Assembly: GCA_036496555.1 (NCBI GenBank)
Contig: DASXKY010000066.1
Location: forward strand, 5,834 to 69,833
DNA length: 64,000 nt
Direction of reading: 5' to 3'
Source of the DNA: Burkholderiales bacterium
GTDB taxonomy: Bacteria; Pseudomonadota; Gammaproteobacteria; Burkholderiales; SG8-39
The notes below the pieces were generated by a model. That model searched no databases. It saw only the letters and a list, made by a program, of their open reading frames with translations, and was not told the origin of the DNA. A program made the translations under genes and the position numbers. The stretch's first letter is position 1. The number at the start of each line of letters is the position of its first letter. Positions 17,395-27,915 of the stretch are shown here, piece after piece.

Positions 17395-18042
17395 TTATTG
17401 GAGGCGGATATGCGTCTGCACGATGGTGACCGAATTGCGCGGTCCGACGGACCGCGCGGTGACGCGGTAATGGATCGAGGGCGGCTTGGTGAAGAAGTTG
17501 GGCTGGCTCATGTCGAGGCCTTCGCCGCTGAGGACGGCCGCGTCGGGCGTCGACAGGCACAGGTTGGTCGCGCTGTTGCACGTCGCGTTCGGCGCACAGG
17601 TGAGGCCGGACTGGCTGCACAGGCGCTCGACGATGTAGGAGACGGTGTTGCCCGAGGCGTCGGCCAGGCCTCCATTGATTGCGGCCGCGTTGGCCCAGGT
17701 GCCGGAGCTGCTGAAATCCTTGTCCCGGCCCAGCACATCCACGCTGGCCCAGTAGCCGGTGCTGGAAACGCCCGCCACGTTGTGGTCGAGGTAGAGCTGA
17801 GTCTGATCCGCGACGGACTGAGTCGCGAGGTAAGCCTGGCCTGCCTGGATGCCCTGGTCTGCGCCGTTCATCGCCGACTCTTTGAACGCAATGTTGCCGG
17901 CGACGAGCGCGCTGGTATCCACCGAACGCATGGTGGCAATGCCGGCGAGCGACATGGCGACCAGCACGATGAGGGCGATGATCAGCGTCGCACCGGTCTG
18001 GCGGCGCGGATGATACGCGTGGCGCGAGGGCGAATGGGTCAT
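17395..18042 (-). CDS. pilX: Type IV pilus minor pilin PilX
   Basis: Start at MTHSPSRHAYHPRRQTGATLIIALIVLVAMSLAG (PilX_N-like, no Glu5). ATG 18042 lies 2 nt after the pilW stop. Confidence 0.8.
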   Translation of the reverse strand: MTHSPSRHAYHPRRQTGATLIIALIVLVAMSLAGIATMRSVDTSALVAGNIAFKESAMNGADQGIQAGQAYLATQSVADQTQLYLDHNVAGVSSTGYWASVDVLGRDKDFSSSGTWANAAAINGGLADASGNTVSYIVERLCSQSGLTCAPNATCNSATNLCLSTPDAAVLSGEGLDMSQPNFFTKPPSIHYRVTARSVGPRNSVTIVQTHIRLQ

Positions 18043-18044
18043 GG

Positions 18045-19295
18045 TCAGCTCGATTTCCAGATCCAGTTGCGCAGCGGCACCGTGGTCTCGAACGTCTTGT
18101 ACCGGTAGCACTGCCAGTTGCCGTCGGCCGAGAGATCGAGCGAGATCATCGTCAGCGCCGGCGTAACTGCAGGCCAGCCCTGCGCGGACCAGGTCGGGTA
18201 GGCGGAGGTCGTGTCGCAAGGCGAGCCCGGGCCGCCGGAGCCCACTTCGGGTTGCGCGCTTCTGGCCACCAGCACCAGGCGCACGGCGATCACGCTCGTC
18301 CAGGGGTTGCCGAGTCCCGCGAACTTCGGCGCGTCGACGAAGCGGTCGATCTTCCCGTCGCCGGCGACCGCGGCGCCGACCTGGTAGGGCACGGTCGCGT
18401 CGGAGGTGCCGTCGTCCAGCCCGTAGAGCGCGCGCATGTGCACGATGTTGTCCGCGACCGCGTTCGCCGCCGCGGGGCCGGTGGTGTTGAAGGCCGACGA
18501 GACGGTAAGCGTCGTAGTAGAGACGGCGTAGGTGTTGTAGACGGGCATCGTCGCCCCGTTATAGGCGTACGTGCCGTTGATGTCGTACAGATTGCCGAGG
18601 TTGAAGACGCGCGTGGCATTCGCGCCCGCCGAGGCGTAGCTCGTCGGGCTGGCCCACCCTCCAGGCCGGTTGAAGCGCGAGTTCTTGCTCGGAGTTCCGA
18701 TCGCCCAGTTCAGCTGGTAGGTGGTCGCGGACCGGTGATCCATGAAGTTGCTGCCCGGCACCGCCGTTACCTCCATCATCGAGCAGTTCTTGATACCGCC
18801 CGGTTCCAAAAGCACGACAAGATCGCCCACGCGCGTGCCGAAGCTGTTCTGCGTCTGGAAGCTGACGTCGGTCGCCAGATTGTCGATCGACCGCGACAGC
18901 GTCGTGGCATTGCCCACGATCTGCTGCGAGCCGTAGAAGACTGTCAGCCGGTCGGCCGTGCGGGCGTTGCCGCCGCTCGTGATCTGCACGGGCAGGAGCG
19001 AGAGGGTGTAGTCAGTGGGCGAGCGTTGCGAGTCGTAGGCCTGGATCGTGCAGCCAACATAGGGCGTGTCGTTGAAGCCCATCCCGGCCTGGCGCAGGTC
19101 GTTCTCCATGACGTAGAGGCCGATGACGCCGTTCTGCTGCGAGTCGCCGCCGCTGGTCGTGGAGCGCTTGATGCCCTCTGACACCTCGAAAACCTGGAAC
19201 ATGATGATGGTGCCCATCAGCGCAATCACCATCGCGACCATCAGCTCGACCATGCTGAGGCCCGTCTGGAAGCGGCGGCGCGAAAGAGGGTGCAT
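18045..19295 (-). CDS. pilW: Type IV pilus minor pilin PilW
   Basis: Start at MHPLSRRRFQTG/LSMVELMVAMVIALMG (prepilin leader, Glu5). ATG 19295 lies 2 nt after the pilV stop. The 170 upstream codons of the track ORF are Arg-rich and overlap pilV. Confidence 0.8.
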   Translation of the reverse strand: MHPLSRRRFQTGLSMVELMVAMVIALMGTIIMFQVFEVSEGIKRSTTSGGDSQQNGVIGLYVMENDLRQAGMGFNDTPYVGCTIQAYDSQRSPTDYTLSLLPVQITSGGNARTADRLTVFYGSQQIVGNATTLSRSIDNLATDVSFQTQNSFGTRVGDLVVLLEPGGIKNCSMMEVTAVPGSNFMDHRSATTYQLNWAIGTPSKNSRFNRPGGWASPTSYASAGANATRVFNLGNLYDINGTYAYNGATMPVYNTYAVSTTTLTVSSAFNTTGPAAANAVADNIVHMRALYGLDDGTSDATVPYQVGAAVAGDGKIDRFVDAPKFAGLGNPWTSVIAVRLVLVARSAQPEVGSGGPGSPCDTTSAYPTWSAQGWPAVTPALTMISLDLSADGNWQCYRYKTFETTVPLRNWIWKSS

Positions 19296-19297
19296 GG

Positions 19298-19750
19298 TCA
19301 GTTCGTGAACACCGAAGCAATAAGGGTGTAGTTGCGCGCGGGCAGGCCCTGCGAGGCCTCCTCCGGGAGCTGCCAGTAGACCGTGATCTGCACAGTCGCT
19401 CCGCTCGCGGTGGCGCCCGAGACCGCGATCACTGGCTGCGCCGCGGTGGTCCCCGGCAGGCGGGAACCGACGTCGCTCACCCAGTTCGTGAGCCGCGCGG
19501 GAACCGTGCCGGTGCCGGGGTAGGCGTAGGCCGAGACGTTTCCGGCATCGGTCCACATCTGCGTGAGCAGCTGGTTGGCGAGAAATGCCGCCTCGCTGCG
19601 GTACTTCGAATCGCTCACGGTGCGGATCGCCGTGGCCTGCATGCCGACGACGGCCAGGATGCCGATCGAGAAGATCAGGATGCCGATCAGCGCTTCGAGG
19701 AGGGCGACGCCGCGCTGGCCGCGCGCGGTTTTCATGGTGGAGGGGATCAT
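19298..19750 (-). CDS. pilV: Type IV pilus minor pilin PilV
   Basis: MIPSTMKTARGQRG/VALLEALIGILIFSIGILAV. GAGGAA lies 7 nt upstream of ATG 19750; alternative ATG at 19735. Confidence 0.8.
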   Translation of the reverse strand: MIPSTMKTARGQRGVALLEALIGILIFSIGILAVVGMQATAIRTVSDSKYRSEAAFLANQLLTQMWTDAGNVSAYAYPGTGTVPARLTNWVSDVGSRLPGTTAAQPVIAVSGATASGATVQITVYWQLPEEASQGLPARNYTLIASVFTN

Positions 19751-19761
19751 CGGAAGGTTCC

Positions 19762-20319
19762 TCACGGGCACGCCCGCGGATCGGGCGGCGTTGCGGCGGG
19801 GTCAAGCTTGGGATCGCACATCTTGATGCTGCCGCCGCCGGTGACGACGATGCGCAGGCAGCGCATATTGCCGGCCGGGCTGTCGGTCTCGCAGCCGCCG
19901 CCCGACGGATTGACGAAATCCATCCGCGTGACGCCGGACGGGTCGACCGTCACCGCGCCGAGCGGGGTGAAGGTCACCTTGAAGGCACCCGCCGGCAGCG
20001 TGTTGACGCCGACGTTGGGCGTGCCTTCCTCATGCACGCGCGTTTGAATCACCGACCCGCTCGTGACCTCCGATACGGTCCAGCCGCTGCCGGGACCGAC
20101 GGCTAGCTGCACCTGAAGATTGCGCGCGATGGCATTGGCGCGGGCGACCTGCAGGCCGTTCTGCATGGCATTGGCGGCGGCGCGGATCTGCGAGTTCTGC
20201 ATGAAGCCGAAGAAGCTCGGCCCCGCCATGGCGACGAGCACGCCCAGCACCACCAGCGAGATCAGCACCTCGATGATGGTGAAGCCGCGTGCGGCGGCGG
20301 GTCGGCGCCTGCTCAGCAT
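19762..20319 (-). CDS. fimT: Type IV pilus minor pilin FimT/FimU (GspH-like)
   Basis: MLSRRRPAAARG/FTIIEVLISLVVLGVLVAMAGPSF. ATG 20319 overlaps the pilE-like stop by 7 nt; alternative TTG at 20343. Confidence 0.75.
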   Translation of the reverse strand: MLSRRRPAAARGFTIIEVLISLVVLGVLVAMAGPSFFGFMQNSQIRAAANAMQNGLQVARANAIARNLQVQLAVGPGSGWTVSEVTSGSVIQTRVHEEGTPNVGVNTLPAGAFKVTFTPLGAVTVDPSGVTRMDFVNPSGGGCETDSPAGNMRCLRIVVTGGGSIKMCDPKLDPAATPPDPRACP

Positions 20320-20735
20320 TGCCCGCTTTTCTTGGTGGCCCAACAGTTGGTGCTCGGCAGCGACCAGCCCGTGGGTACGTGGGTGGTACTGCGCGTGTTG
20401 GCTTGGTCGATCGTGTAGGTGAAGCCGTTCATGTCCTGCTGGCCGGTTGCCGTCACCGTGTAGGTCTGCGACGGCGAGGCCGCGAAGGTGCAGGCGAGGC
20501 CGAAGTACTTCTGGTTCGCTGGCATGCCGGCGGTGCAGCCGCCGTCGTAGCGGCGGTTGTCCTGGTAGTACTGCTCGAGCTTGGTGCGCACGGCGAGGAG
20601 GTTGGTCGTCGCTTCCTGGATCTTTCCGCGCTTCACGTAGTCGCTATAGGACGGAAGCGCGACCGCCGCCAGGATGGCGATGACCGCCACCGTGACCATG
20701 AGTTCGATGAGGGTGAATCCCCTTTGCTTGCGCAT
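20313..20735 (-). CDS. pilE: Type IV pilin-like protein PilE (minor pilin)
   Basis: MRKQRG/FTLIELMVTVAVIAILAAVALPSYSDYVKRGK with a C-terminal Cys pair. AAGGGGG lies upstream of ATG 20735. Confidence 0.8.
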   Translation of the reverse strand: MRKQRGFTLIELMVTVAVIAILAAVALPSYSDYVKRGKIQEATTNLLAVRTKLEQYYQDNRRYDGGCTAGMPANQKYFGLACTFAASPSQTYTVTATGQQDMNGFTYTIDQANTRSTTHVPTGWSLPSTNCWATKKSGQC

Positions 20736-20888
20736 GCTGCCCCCTTTTCTGAATGCCATCTTAGGAAGCGCCGCGCTGGACCGCAAAACCCGGCGATCAG
20801 CGGCTGGAATCGCAGACCGAACGGCGCGATGCGGCGCAGTATATCGGAAGTAGTTCACGCTTCCGGCCGGCCGGCGAAGGGGGGTGGG

Positions 20889-20894
20889 TATAAT
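20889..20894 (+). promoter_or_regulatory. -10-like TATAAT box upstream of tRNA-Thr
   Basis: A perfect TATAAT 10 nt before tRNA position 1. No convincing -35 was found. Confidence 0.4.
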
Positions 20895-20904
20895 TGGTTG
20901 CTCT

Positions 20905-20977
20905 GCTGGCGTAGCTCAGTTGGTAGAGCAGTCGCTTCGTAAGCGTCAGGTCGCGTGTTCGAGTCACGCCGCCAGCA
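20905..20977 (+). tRNA. tRNA-Thr (anticodon CGT)
   Basis: Hand-folded cloverleaf. Acceptor GCTGGCG/CGCCAGC, D arm GCTC-AGTTGGTA-GAGC, anticodon loop TT-CGT-AA, T arm GCGTG-TTCGAGT-CACGC, discriminator A. The 3' CCA is not encoded (ACCG). Confidence 0.9.
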
Positions 20978-20988
20978 CCGAGCCACCC

Positions 20989-22134: not shown

Positions 22135-22892
22135 TTCGTCGCGTTCCGCGCCGCCACGCGCTCGCTCAGCGCGATGCGGGCGAGGCCCTCGAGCACCAGG
22201 TTCTCGACATAGCGCCGCGGCATGGTCAGCTGATCGGCGAGGGGGCGGCCGGCGCCGCCCGAGACGATGCACAGCGGCGTGCCGTCGAGGTCGCGGAACG
22301 CGCGGTACATGCGCTCCACCGCGCCGGCCTGCGCGTGGCGGCAGCCGGTCTCGATGGCGTCGACGGTGTTGCGCGGCATGTCGCGCGGCGTGCCCTCCTG
22401 GATCGGCAGCCGGCCGGTGTGCTCGTGCAGCACGAAGCGCATCAGCTCGACGCCGGGCAGGATCGCACCGCCGAGGAAGCTGCCGTCGGCGGCGAGCATG
22501 TCGACGGTGGTGGCGGTGCCGGCGTTCACCACCAGGCTGGCGCCGGAATGCAGGCTGCGCGCGGCGACCAGCGCGGCCCAGCGGTCGGCGCCGAGCTGCT
22601 CCGGGCGCTCGTAGCGGTTGGTCACGCCGCAGCGCTCGGGCTCGCCGCGCAGCCATAGAGGCTCGGCGTCGAAGATGCTGGTCCAGTTGACCAGCAGCTG
22701 GTGCGCGCCTTCGCCGGCGACGTTCGAGATGACGATGCGCTCGGGGTCGGCATGCGTGACCGAGAACGGATTGACGTGGTCGCTTGAGGCTGCGAATTCG
22801 ATGAGCGACACGCTAGCGACGCTTTGCCAGTCGGTCCCGTCATGCCAGCCCCACTTCACCCGCGAGTTGCCGGCGTCGATGGCGAGGATCAT
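22131..22892 (-). CDS. coaX: Type III pantothenate kinase
   Basis: MILAIDAGNSRVKWG and GADRWAALVAA motifs. ATG 22892 overlaps the birA stop (ATGA). Confidence 0.9.
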   Translation of the reverse strand: MILAIDAGNSRVKWGWHDGTDWQSVASVSLIEFAASSDHVNPFSVTHADPERIVISNVAGEGAHQLLVNWTSIFDAEPLWLRGEPERCGVTNRYERPEQLGADRWAALVAARSLHSGASLVVNAGTATTVDMLAADGSFLGGAILPGVELMRFVLHEHTGRLPIQEGTPRDMPRNTVDAIETGCRHAQAGAVERMYRAFRDLDGTPLCIVSGGAGRPLADQLTMPRRYVENLVLEGLARIALSERVAARNATK

Positions 22893-23629
22893 GCAGCCCT
22901 CACGGTGCCGCTGCGGATGCTGCGGATTCCGCTCCGCGTTCGCAGCGACAGCGCGCCGTCTTCGCCGAGCCCTGTCGCGACGCCCGTCACCGATCTGCCG
23001 TTTGCCAGCCTGACCTTGACGCGCTGGCCGGCGTGGGCGTGCATCGCTTCCCAATCGCGTCGCGCTGGCTCGAAGCCTTCTGCTTCGAACGCGTCGACTG
23101 CGCTCATGAGAGCAGCGGCGATCTTCTGCAGGATGAAGTCGCCATCGCCGACCGCGACAAACCGGTCCAGAGACGCGACCGGTCTGCGCAGGCGGCGGGA
23201 AAGCTCGTCCGCGCCGCGCAGGTTGATGCCGATGCCGACCACCGCCAGCGTTTCGCGGCCCGCCGCGCGGGTTTCGACCAGGATTCCGCCGAGCTTGCCG
23301 CCGCTTGCGACGAGATCGTTGGGCCACTTCAGCTCTGCCGGCGCGCCAAGGGCGCGCAGCGCGCGCGCCGCGGCCACGCCGGCGACGAGCGAGAGCGCGG
23401 CGAGCTCGCGCAGCGGCCGGCGCAGGCGCCGCGCGAGCGAGAAGCTGAGGCTGGCGCCCGGCGCGCCGATCCAGCGCCGTCCGCGCCGTCCGCGGCCGGC
23501 GGTTTGCTCGTCGGCGACGAGGAGCACCGGCGCGGCCGGGGCCTGCGCGAGCAGGACGCTGTTGGTCGAGCCACAGCGCGCCACGCGGCGGACTTCGACG
23601 CCGGGCAGGGCCATCGCGGGAATCGTCAT
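22889..23629 (-). CDS. birA: Biotin--[acetyl-CoA-carboxylase] ligase (no N-terminal HTH domain)
   Basis: STNSVLL...VADEQTAGRGRRGRRW signature. At 246 aa it is the group I (non-repressor) size. Confidence 0.85.
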   Translation of the reverse strand: MTIPAMALPGVEVRRVARCGSTNSVLLAQAPAAPVLLVADEQTAGRGRRGRRWIGAPGASLSFSLARRLRRPLRELAALSLVAGVAAARALRALGAPAELKWPNDLVASGGKLGGILVETRAAGRETLAVVGIGINLRGADELSRRLRRPVASLDRFVAVGDGDFILQKIAAALMSAVDAFEAEGFEPARRDWEAMHAHAGQRVKVRLANGRSVTGVATGLGEDGALSLRTRSGIRSIRSGTVRAA

Positions 23630-25996: not shown

Positions 25997-26128
25997 AGAA
26001 ACAGCAATTAGACTCGTAGTCCTAGCGGACTACGGCCGTGCCATAGATCTGTCGAGAGGAAAGTCGCATGATCTCGACCCATGTGTAGGACGTGATCTAC
26101 ACATCGACAGACGAACGGCCAGCACACT

Positions 26129-26197
26129 GTTAGCAGCCCCCGCCTCGAGCAGTACGTTTCATGGCAGGGCCAAACAAAGCGCAGTCGTCAGTTTGAT
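26129..26197 (+). repeat. 69-nt direct repeat, copy 1
   Basis: GTTAGCAGCCCCCGCCTCGAGCAGTACGTTTCATGGCAGGGCCAAACAAAGCGCAGTCGTCAGTTTGAT. It differs from copy 2 at 3 positions by hand alignment. Confidence 0.9.
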
Positions 26198-26226
26198 CGC
26201 CGCACCTGGTATCTGAGGGCAATCCC

Positions 26227-26255
26227 GGGGGGCACAGTTAGCAGCTGTGCCCCCC
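26227..26255 (+). other. 11-bp-stem hairpin GGGGGGCACAG-TTAGCAG-CTGTGCCCCCC
   Basis: Perfect inverted repeat read directly from the sequence. The loop is identical to that of the hairpin at 26351-26375. No adjacent T-run (CTCGTTGTT lies 17 nt downstream). Confidence 0.8.
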
Positions 26256-26276
26256 GCTTAAAGCGGCCAGCTCGTT

Positions 26277-26345
26277 GTTACCAGCCCCCGCCTCAAGCGG
26301 TACGTTTCATGGCAGGGCCAAACAAAGCGCAGTCGTCAGTTTGAT
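26277..26345 (+). repeat. 69-nt direct repeat, copy 2
   Basis: GTTACCAGCCCCCGCCTCAAGCGGTACGTTTCATGGCAGGGCCAAACAAAGCGCAGTCGTCAGTTTGAT, 148 bp after copy 1. Confidence 0.9.
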
Positions 26346-26350
26346 TCCGG

Positions 26351-26387
26351 AGGGCACAGTTAGCAGCTGTGCCCTTCGTTGTTTTCT
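26351..26387 (+). terminator. Intrinsic terminator-like hairpin plus T-tract (+ strand)
   Basis: AGGGCACAG-TTAGCAG-CTGTGCCCT followed by TCGTTGTTTTCT. The reverse strand lacks a T-tract. Confidence 0.65.
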
Positions 26388-26487: not shown

Positions 26488-27915
26488 TTACGTCGCCATC
26501 GGGCGTCGTTGCGGCGGACGCAGGCGCTCGACGAGCTTCGCCATCCGTAGTACGCCGGCGTCGTCGAAACGCTGACCGACGATCTGCACGCCGATCGGCA
26601 ATCCGTCGGCGCTGTAGCCCCAGTTGATCGAAGCCGCCGGCTGCTCCGACATGTTGAACGGCACGGTGAAGGCGATGTGCGGCAGAGCGTTGTGCGAGTC
26701 GTTGCCCGGGGCCGGCAGCTCGGCTTCGTAGGGAAGGATCGGCGAGGTCGGCGACAGGATGAAGTCATACTGGCGCGACGCGTTCACTGCCGCTTCGCGC
26801 ATCGCCATCACACTGTTGTAGGCCTGCATGACGTCGCGCCCGGTGAACTTAGCGCCGCGCCAGGAGCACCACTCGACGATGAACGGCAGCACCTTCTGGC
26901 GCTTGGGCGCCCGCAGCAGCATGTAGTCGTTGTACGAGCGCGCCTCGAAGAAGCGGCAGACGCCGTCGAGCATCTCCTCGGTGAGGAACGAGCGGATCGA
27001 CTCGACATTGCAGCCGGCCGCGGCGAGCGCGGTCGCGGCGCCCTCCGCCGCGGCGCGCACCTCGCGGTCGATCGACAGGCCGACGCCCATGTCGGGCAGC
27101 AAGCCGACCTTGACGCGTCCCGGGTCGAGGTCGTCGAGCCCTTTCGCGTAGTCCTGCGCCTGCGCCGGCAGCGACATGAAGTCGCGGGCGTCAGGCCGCG
27201 AGAGTACGTTCATCATCAGCGCCGCGTCCTCGACGGTCCGGGTCATGGGACCTGCGACGCGGCCCATGTACGGCGGGTACACGGGTACCCGGCCGAGCGA
27301 GGGCTTGAGCGCAAAGATGCCGCAATGCGTGGCCGGCAGCCGCACCGAGCCGCCGATGTCGGTGCCGAGGTGCAGCGGCGCGTAGCCCGCGGCGCACGCC
27401 GCGCCCGCGCCCGAGCTCGAGCCCGACGGATTGCGGTCGAGCCGCCATGGATTGCGGGTGATGCCGTGCAGGCTGGAGAGCCCCGAGGACAGCATGCCGT
27501 AGTCGGGCATGGTGGTCTTGCCGAGCAGCACGCAGCCCGCCTCGCGCAGGCGCGCCGCGGCGGGCGCGTCCTCCGGCTGCGGCGGCGCGTCCTCGTTCGC
27601 CCGCGTGCCGATCGGCGCCGGCGCGCCGCGCGTATGGATGTTCTCCTTGATGGTGAGCGGGATGCCGTCGAGCGCCGAGAGCGGCGTGCCGGACTCGAGG
27701 CGCGCCTCCGCCGCGCGCGCCTGCTCGAGGGCGCCTTCGCGGTCGACGCGGTACATCGCATTCAGCTTCGGCTCGAGCTCGGCGATGCGAGCAAGCGACG
27801 CGCGCGTCGCTTCCATGGGCGAGAGCTCGCCGCGCCGGAAGGCGGCTGCGAGCTCGGCGGCGCTGCGCTCGTGCAATGCGGCTTTCACCTCCCGAATATA
27901 TACTGCGCGCGACAT
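26488..27915 (-). CDS. Amidase (amidase-signature family)
   Basis: GGSSSGAGAACAAGYAPLHLGTDIGGSVRLPA signature. Start ATG 27915 (MSRAVYIREVKAALHE); alternative GTG at 27888. Confidence 0.85.
   Translation of the reverse strand: MSRAVYIREVKAALHERSAAELAAAFRRGELSPMEATRASLARIAELEPKLNAMYRVDREGALEQARAAEARLESGTPLSALDGIPLTIKENIHTRGAPAPIGTRANEDAPPQPEDAPAAARLREAGCVLLGKTTMPDYGMLSSGLSSLHGITRNPWRLDRNPSGSSSGAGAACAAGYAPLHLGTDIGGSVRLPATHCGIFALKPSLGRVPVYPPYMGRVAGPMTRTVEDAALMMNVLSRPDARDFMSLPAQAQDYAKGLDDLDPGRVKVGLLPDMGVGLSIDREVRAAAEGAATALAAAGCNVESIRSFLTEEMLDGVCRFFEARSYNDYMLLRAPKRQKVLPFIVEWCSWRGAKFTGRDVMQAYNSVMAMREAAVNASRQYDFILSPTSPILPYEAELPAPGNDSHNALPHIAFTVPFNMSEQPAASINWGYSADGLPIGVQIVGQRFDDAGVLRMAKLVERLRPPQRRPMAT

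Follow-up and report, generated by a model that had tools for sequence, protein, structure and literature searches.

What might be encoded by two near-identical sequence units that lie in tandem between two convergent genes, in a gap where no protein-coding gene is evident? The units were found in a 64-kb window, meaning the whole stretch of DNA analysed here, from a Burkholderiales bacterium (contig DASXKY010000066.1), within a gap of 491 nucleotides (nt) that separates the gene for a DUF1304 membrane protein from the 3' end of an amidase gene. An earlier reading of the bare sequence, hereafter the original prediction, had taken them for a pair of sibling small-RNA genes.

The analysis establishes a tandem repeat that is conserved among relatives, occupies a single locus in a varying number of copies, has plus-strand polarity and non-coding status, and ends in a terminator under RNA-type selection. 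Judged by comparative evidence, the locus is real, selected, plus-strand and non-coding. The favoured reading, to which about an even chance is given (roughly 0.5), is that the units are tandem sibling small-RNA genes resembling PrrF1/2, each predicted to be independently transcribed, and the locus most likely represents a new, narrowly distributed sibling small-RNA family.

A conserved tandem repeat

The direct repeat covers 82 nt in each copy, with 93% identity and a period of 148 nt (Table 1). The original prediction had described copies of 69 nt with three mismatches and an identical final 45 nt, a description that was borne out within what is actually a longer repeat, and the hexamers that it placed exactly 17 nt apart in both copies could be read directly, position 26129 being the G that precedes TTAGCA. 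Shuffled sequence gives an expectation of 0 matches for either the 45-mer or the hairpin, the window holds exactly two of each, and chance is excluded as the origin of the repeat and of the hairpin pair. Alignment of 31 units, those of relatives included, distinguishes two forms: type B consists of promoter-like region, core, hairpin and T-tract, and type A adds a 26-nt linker, its hairpin lacking the T-tract when another unit comes after it.

Over the 85 nt compared, unit 1 is 93-100% identical between relatives (designated here by L numbers) and the window, far above the flanking coding DNA, for which the values are approximately 81% across the DUF1304 coding sequence, 61-69% at its third codon positions and 84-86% in the last 300 nt of the amidase gene. 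This difference points to purifying selection on the unit. The region upstream of the units (86-92% identity) and the trailer downstream of them (71-91%) are also part of the conserved segment.

RNA-type selection and plus-strand polarity

The hairpins that follow the units carry the evidence for an RNA product. The original prediction's pair of hairpins sharing one loop, TTAGCAG, was confirmed, with 12-bp stems in each and a T-rich tail on the second only. The terminator hairpin (26348-26378) comprises 12 bp including one G·T, followed by the tail TTGTTTTCT, and the segment 26348-26387 is the sole terminator-like site that a scan of the gap returned, on the plus strand, with none for the amidase strand. 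The T-tract region differs by 2 nt in length between lineages. Across the 31-unit alignment, 6 of the 12 pairs of the G+C hairpin have changed on both sides with pairing kept, a number reached by 0 of 500 shuffles; among these two-sided changes are CACAG/CTGTG to CACGG/CCGTG or to CGCAG/CTGCG, and GGGG/CCCC to GAAG/CTTC. Furthermore, a conserved G·U in CGGAGGG/CCCTTCG pairs in plus-strand RNA only, as do the single C-to-T variants CCCTCC, CTCCCC and CCTCCC opposite GGGGGG in type A hairpins. Terminal hairpins are intact in every terminal unit, and the internal hairpins of second modules are decaying. Altogether, the two-sided changes, the G·U asymmetry and the intact terminal hairpins constitute good evidence for a plus-strand transcript ending at 26379-26387. 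Compensatory variants of hairpin 1 occur in L007, L021 and L023, and second modules have it in degenerate form; as a terminator it is probably leaky or vestigial.

Selection on one strand, as told by the G·U asymmetry and the T-tract, is difficult to reconcile with a purely DNA-level element that would terminate and separate the convergent transcription units and whose palindromes and repeats would be protein-binding sites. Such an insulator could be useful, since the genes abut or overlap in relatives without the module, and the palindrome arms are invariant in sequence beyond mere pairing. However, no amidase-strand terminator was returned by the scan, the 35-nt core, although better conserved than any other part, is no palindrome and no terminator, and insulation does not need amplification to four copies, all of which makes this explanation improbable.

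Other stems did not fare as the G+C hairpin did. The stem CAAAC-N15-GTTTG, which the original prediction had placed in a shared 5' region, is present in the sequence but without support from relatives: it shows 0 compensatory changes and 8 broken cells, is indistinguishable from shuffles, and is broken by T-to-C changes in GTTTG in five units, among others. Neither L007 nor L018 retains the long-range stems GGCCGT/ACGGCC and CTGTCGA/TCGACAG, two that were predicted in the upstream region of the window.

In addition, a 9-mer, GTTAGCAGC (GTTACCAGC in unit 2), occupies both -35-like sites (26129-26137 and 26277-26285) and both hairpin loop regions (26235-26243 and 26359-26367), and relatives largely retain the loop, including those in which both sides of the stems are altered. 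Common descent of the two segments, or a motif acting at the RNA level, could account for the recurrence of the 9-mer.

Coding potential

Small-peptide genes would offer a different account of the conserved sequence, either as an 11-codon open reading frame (ORF), MAGPNKAQSSV, in each identical 45-mer, or as a leader peptide, MISTHV, encoded by a mini-ORF at 26068-26088 behind a Shine-Dalgarno (SD) sequence. The identical 45 nt coincide exactly with the ATG..TGA of the former, and the ATG at 26068 has an SD-like GAGGAAAG 4 nt before it. Both start codons are nevertheless lost in homologous copies. The ATG of MAGPNKAQSSV, before which there is no SD sequence, has become AGG or AAG while the remaining sequence is unchanged (both units of L007, L013_u2-u4, units 3 and 4 of L014, and L015_u2). 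The ATG of the mini-ORF reads AAG in L017 and ATC in all second modules and is also lost in L021 and L024, and the third codon varies at positions 1 and 2. Because the start codons are lost with the sequence kept, and the 2-nt length difference in the T-tract region would break a reading frame, coding is excluded, and the peptide explanation is regarded as refuted.

Predicted transcription of the units and a possible 3'UTR origin

In the favoured small-RNA reading, each unit would consist of a weak sigma-70-like promoter (TTAGCA, 17 nt, TACGTT), a segment of about 35 nt and a G+C hairpin, the invariant and largely unstructured segment GGCAGGGCCAAACAAAGCGCAGUCGUCAGUUUGAU serving as the target-pairing region. 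Two invariant palindromes upstream of unit 1 are candidate sites at which a regulator would assist a promoter that is too weak by itself. The RNA of unit 1 is predicted to start at approximately 26164-26166; unit 2 would give rise to an RNA of about 75 nt, and unit 1 to a longer read-through RNA containing both cores, like PrrH at prrF1-prrF2. Since only the last hairpin carries a U-tract, this combination is the most likely one. Of the two transcripts originally proposed, of about 75 nt and about 110 nt, the former, from unit 2, is thus retained as probable, and a separate RNA of about 110 nt from copy 1 is doubtful, read-through being likely at a hairpin without a U-tract. Promoters, transcript ends, action in trans and any targets are putative at this locus. 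The proposal of sibling small RNAs is upheld in its freedom from known Rfam families, its single locus, its conservation, the covariation of its terminator, its plus-strand and non-coding character and its one to four copies; it is not upheld in the CAAAC/GTTTG stem or in the separate RNA of copy 1.

The promoter half of this model was approached through geometry and substitution pattern. A loose definition (a -35 hexamer that matches at 4 or more of its 6 positions, then 17 nt of spacer and TAnnnT) has four occurrences in 128 kb of G+C-rich window, two of which are the units. No indel falls between the hexamers in any of the 31 units, indels being common in the linker and loops, and the substitutions lie just upstream of the -35, in the five spacer nt beside the -10, and between the -10 and the core. 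The start of the invariant stretch (GCAGGGCC) coincides with the predicted start site. These features weakly suggest that TTAGCA-17-TACGTT acts as a promoter. Readings of the element as a sigma-54, RpoH, RpoE or extracytoplasmic-function (ECF) promoter, an attC site, a CRP-like site or a Fur box were compared by eye with consensus sequences, and none fits.

Several observations weigh against independently transcribed sibling genes. A consensus promoter scan finds no sigma-70 site in the gap, the hexamers being sub-consensus (4/6 and 3/6), and the tRNA-Thr(CGT) gene at 20905-20979 has, unlike the units, a perfect TATAAT (20889-20894), from which it follows that strong promoters in this organism use a canonical -10. 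The promoter-like half, with its spacer CAGCCCCCGCC and the CA after the -10, varies as little as the core does, so that a promoter alone is an insufficient explanation of it. A motif at the RNA level is hinted at by the recurrence of GTTAGCAGC in the terminator loop, and no U-tract follows hairpin 1. A long hairpin that would pair the promoter-like half with the core shows a double change (in L013_u3 and L014_u3, TGTT to TGCT and AACA to AGCA) plus several wobble-compatible changes. Moreover, the majority of loci were collected through an exact match to the core, so that the core looks more invariant than it otherwise would; L007 and L110, with unit 1 identities of 95% and 100%, were reached via protein and are free of this ascertainment bias. 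Finally, no target is detectable in the window, where 10-mer complementarities to the core number 3 against approximately 3.8 expected by chance, and where the best target duplex, at -39.6 kcal/mol, lies within the null range of -36 to -45.

One such 10-mer, TGGCCCTGCC, a perfect complement to the 5' end of the core, is located at 23604-23613 on the minus strand, 16 nt inside the start of a BirA-like ORF (22889-23629, minus strand).

Much of the same evidence can be read as that of RNAs derived from the 3' untranslated region (3'UTR) of the DUF1304 messenger, a possible explanation, if a less expected one. An operon promoter would then transcribe the gap as far as the terminator at 26348-26387, and the units themselves would lack promoters; their promoter-like half would be an RNA arm pairing with the core, and the units would be released by RNase or act in cis on the mRNA. 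The array does follow immediately after a small same-strand gene, and the first terminator-like site beyond that gene is the one at 26348; the two upstream hairpins, a and b, are conserved, with closing pairs changed on both sides; the U-tract follows the last hairpin only; the motif UUAGCAG is displayed twice per unit; and CcsR1-4 provide a precedent (PMC8034643). The RNAalifold consensus likewise pairs columns 3-33, the promoter-like half, with columns 52-78, the core, and this pairing is accompanied by the one double change and by changes from G·U to A-U.

The long hairpin itself is possible but weakly supported. Shuffled sequence folds with comparable energy (z = -0.1 to -0.9), and the hairpin is therefore retained only within the 3'UTR explanation. 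Its covariation amounts to one evolutionary event, the double change in L013_u3 and L014_u3 probably being a single one, and 76 of 500 shuffles match its pair count. In the 3'UTR reading, moreover, the exact 17-nt hexamer geometry would have to have arisen in each unit by chance, where about 0.03 per kb are expected, and the unit is without indels despite a variable 8-nt stretch. On this balance, independently transcribed siblings are preferred over RNAs released from the DUF1304 messenger.

Distribution, copy number and origin

The search of metagenomes required an exact 22-mer from the core, and for the genome under study copies were counted within the 64 kb. An exact match to the 22-mer occurs in 0 of 185,579 species genomes and on 14 metagenome contigs, all at the DUF1304/amidase junction as judged by tblastn. 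Exact, 3-mismatch and hidden Markov model (HMM) searches returned no further copy of core or hairpin in the window, and an HMM built from 31 distinct units found no extra copy in the window, in longer contigs or in 80 related genome loci. These 80 loci, fetched with the amidase, are at most 75% identical and all lack a DUF1304 neighbour. Comparison of the whole gap with plasmids and phages by blastn gave no match. The closest species genomes, with amidase identities of at most 75%, are all named as Burkholderiales or Betaproteobacteria metagenome-assembled genomes, and near-identical strain variants of the window are found on metagenome contigs of the Joint Genome Institute (JGI).

As the original prediction had anticipated, no known RNA family is recognisable in the gap: there is no Rfam match to it at gathering or permissive thresholds, PrrF, OmrA-B and Qrr included. 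At gathering level the sole match in the window is the tRNA at 20905, and the best permissive match in the gap, Pseudomonas P18, is on the opposite strand and scores 20.1 bits where 60 would be its threshold.

This distribution bears directly on the proposal that the units are a dispersed repeat, of the repetitive extragenic palindromic (REP), miniature inverted-repeat transposable element (MITE) or bacterial interspersed mosaic element (BIME) type, here present in two copies. Imperfect palindromes and a patchy presence among close relatives are as such a repeat would have them. Scattered copies, which the original prediction had named as the mark of a REP/MITE-type repeat, were looked for and none was found: there are two copies in the window, and the flanking genes are shared by 14 of 14 contigs. 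Given this single junction and the lack of extra copies, including the 0 matches among species genomes to the 22-mer and the 0 in 80 related loci, the gene-pair reading is not displaced by one of a scattered element. The ends of the module (AGAAACAG... and ...GATCGT), read directly, form neither terminal inverted repeats nor a direct repeat such as a target-site duplication would leave, and extra copies trace back to tandem duplication of a segment in which part of the amidase 3' end is included. Within the reach of these searches, 64 kb of this genome and metagenomes by exact 22-mer, the dispersed-repeat explanation is largely refuted.

Relatives reached through amidase homologues provide a series of presence and absence. 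The module is present in L007-L009 and L110, at 85-86% amidase identity. The amidase gene abuts or overlaps the next convergent gene in L006 and L111 (87%) and in L010, L105 and L106 (77-79%); this gene is DUF1304 in L006, L111, L010 and L106 and an unannotated gene of 86 aa in L105. In L107 a gene on the same strand follows the amidase. In L108 and L109 (3400-3614 in both) the DUF1304 gene is gone and a single degenerate unit abuts the amidase stop codon, with TTATCA and CACGTT as hexamers, three core changes and no terminator hairpin, and this unit looks like a decaying remnant. The gap-less junctions in relatives indicate that the module was inserted within one sub-lineage and later amplified, and the gap of the window is accordingly best described, from these alignments, as a lineage-specific non-coding module placed between two otherwise abutting convergent genes, DUF1304 and amidase.

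Copy number varies around this arrangement. One unit is found in L016, L018 and L022, two units in the window and about seven other lineages, two one-unit modules in L017 and L024, and two two-unit modules, hence four units, in L013 and L014. A copy of about 25 nt of the amidase 3' end (GATCGGTTACGTCGCTGATGGGCGTC) precedes the second module in L013 (approximately 600-640 of the oriented region) and in L017 (approximately 480-515), which shows segmental tandem duplication of the whole gap and not transposition.

A more far-reaching version of the small-RNA reading, put forward tentatively and judged rather unlikely in its full form, would see here a small-RNA gene caught early: a module of about 350 nt in one soil Burkholderiales sub-lineage, carried in 0, 1, 2 or 4 copies through nested tandem duplications, with the L108 remnant decaying. 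The 5' half of a unit would then act both as its promoter, at the DNA level, and as a core-masking arm in read-through RNA from the upstream sibling, and the UUAGCAG loops would be a binding motif for a partner.

Upstream palindromes, trailer and neighbouring features

The features of the gap and its flanks are collected in Table 1. A larger conserved module, in which two palindromes precede the units and about 100 nt of trailer follow them, was absent from the original prediction's description; its full order is hairpin a, purine-rich block, hairpin b, one or two units, terminator and trailer, and it begins directly after the DUF1304 stop codon.

Table 1. Positions of the features of the DUF1304-amidase gap and of its flanking genes in the window.
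Feature	Position	Strand	Basis
DUF1304 membrane protein, 117 aa, PF06993	25643-25996	+	identical protein on 5 metagenome contigs
Hairpin a, GTAGTCC-TAGC-GGACTAC	26016-26033	+	arms invariant in 20 modules
Purine-rich GAGAGGAAAG, then mini-ORF ATG..TAG (MISTHV*)	26054-26088	+	conserved as sequence, not as ORF
Hairpin b, ATGTGTAG-GACGTGAT-CTACACAT	26081-26104	+	arms invariant
Unit 1, 82-nt repeat	26116-26197	+	repeat detection; conserved in relatives
Unit 1 parts: TTAGCA, 17-nt spacer, TACGTT, invariant core GGCAGGGCCAAACAAAGCGCAGTCGTCAGTTTGAT	26130-26135 (TTAGCA); 26153-26158 (TACGTT); 26163-26197 (core)	+	direct reading
Linker CGCCGCACCTGGTATCTGAGGGCAATCC, type A units only	26198-26225	+	alignment of 31 units
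Hairpin 1: perfect 12-bp G+C stem, loop TTAGCAG, then CTTAAAG, no U-tract	26226-26256	+	direct reading
Unit 2, 82-nt repeat: TTACCA 26278-26283, TACGTT 26301-26306, core 26311-26345	26264-26345	+	repeat detection
Intrinsic terminator of the array, CGGAGGGCACAG-TTAGCAG-CTGTGCCCTTCG then TTGTTTTCT	26348-26387	+	terminator scan
Module trailer up to the amidase stop codon	26388-26487		conserved blocks CTACCGCCGCGAAATCATTCTCC, CGCTATCGCCG, GTGTCGCGTTTCGTGGC
Amidase, 475 aa, PF01425, convergent flank	26488-27915	-	annotation

The closing pair of hairpin a has flipped from G-C to C-G in second modules, and in hairpin b the outer A-T pair is replaced by C-G in second modules and by G·T in L024. Hairpin b is centred about 72 nt upstream of the start predicted for RNA 1, and the two hairpins could be regulator sites for the weak promoter or, alternatively, RNA hairpins of a 3'UTR. 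The purine-rich GAGAGGAAAG is situated 4 nt upstream of the mini-ORF ATG, and the stop codon of the mini-ORF falls inside hairpin b. The trailer contains a hairpin of its own, CGCCGCCCAC...GTGGCGGCG, with no T-tract after it on either strand.

Elsewhere in the window, the minus-strand ORFs at 17395-20860 have pilin-like N-termini by eye (FTLIELMVT, GFTIIEVLISLV), which suggests a cluster of type IV pilus minor pilins.

Comparison with known systems

If transcribed, the units would constitute an undescribed small-RNA family from an uncultured and widespread soil and rhizosphere lineage of Burkholderiales, a group in which, to our knowledge, almost no riboregulators are known. No concept would be changed by it, tandem sibling small RNAs and 3'UTR-derived arrays both being well known. 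The main added interest lies in the series that is visible among close relatives, where 0, 1, 2 and 4 copies together with a decaying copy form a compact natural record of the birth, amplification and loss of a small-RNA gene.

The favoured reading takes PrrF1/PrrF2 and PrrH of Pseudomonas aeruginosa as its model, in which, as here, a near-identical head-to-tail pair occupies one intergenic region and each copy has its own promoter (promoter-like here) and hairpin signals. There, read-through of the first terminator produces PrrH, a longer RNA containing both copies and the spacer between them (PMC4211561), and a comparable read-through is predicted here from the U-less hairpin 1. Unlike PrrF, the present units show no similarity to that family in sequence or covariance model and no evident Fur box at the predicted promoters, and they belong to an uncultured betaproteobacterium among whose close relatives copy number ranges from 1 to 4.

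Adjacent siblings that arose by local duplication, as is proposed here, are also represented by OmrA/OmrB of E. coli, AbcR1/AbcR2 of Rhizobiales and NgncR_162/163 of Neisseria, the last being a betaproteobacterial precedent (PMC9973317). Omr is single-copy in Yersinia and Erwinia, and copy-number variation of the kind seen here is described for Omr and csRNA loci (PMC4211561). The members of these pairs have diverged, with 65-80% identity or with identity at the ends only, and their targets and regulators are known, whereas the copies described here are 93% identical, have in common an identical 45 nt that takes in both the -10-like hexamer and the core, and are without an Rfam match.

Elements of the REP, BIME and MITE types resemble the locus in their G+C-rich imperfect palindromes between convergent genes and in their patchy presence; the element described here differs from them in its single locus, its lack of terminal inverted repeats and its amplification by segmental duplication.

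The alternative of a 3'UTR origin finds its closest counterpart in CcsR1-4 of Rhodobacter sphaeroides, processed from the ccaF1 3'UTR, where an array of homologous stem-loop RNAs likewise lies directly downstream of a small same-strand gene and ends in one terminator (PMC8034643). The upstream gene encodes a DUF1304 membrane protein here and a DUF1127 RNA-binding protein at CcsR, and the units described here, unlike CcsR, contain promoter-like hexamers with exact spacing. A recurring loop motif is common to the two systems, UUAGCAG in the present array and CCUCCUCCC in CcsR.

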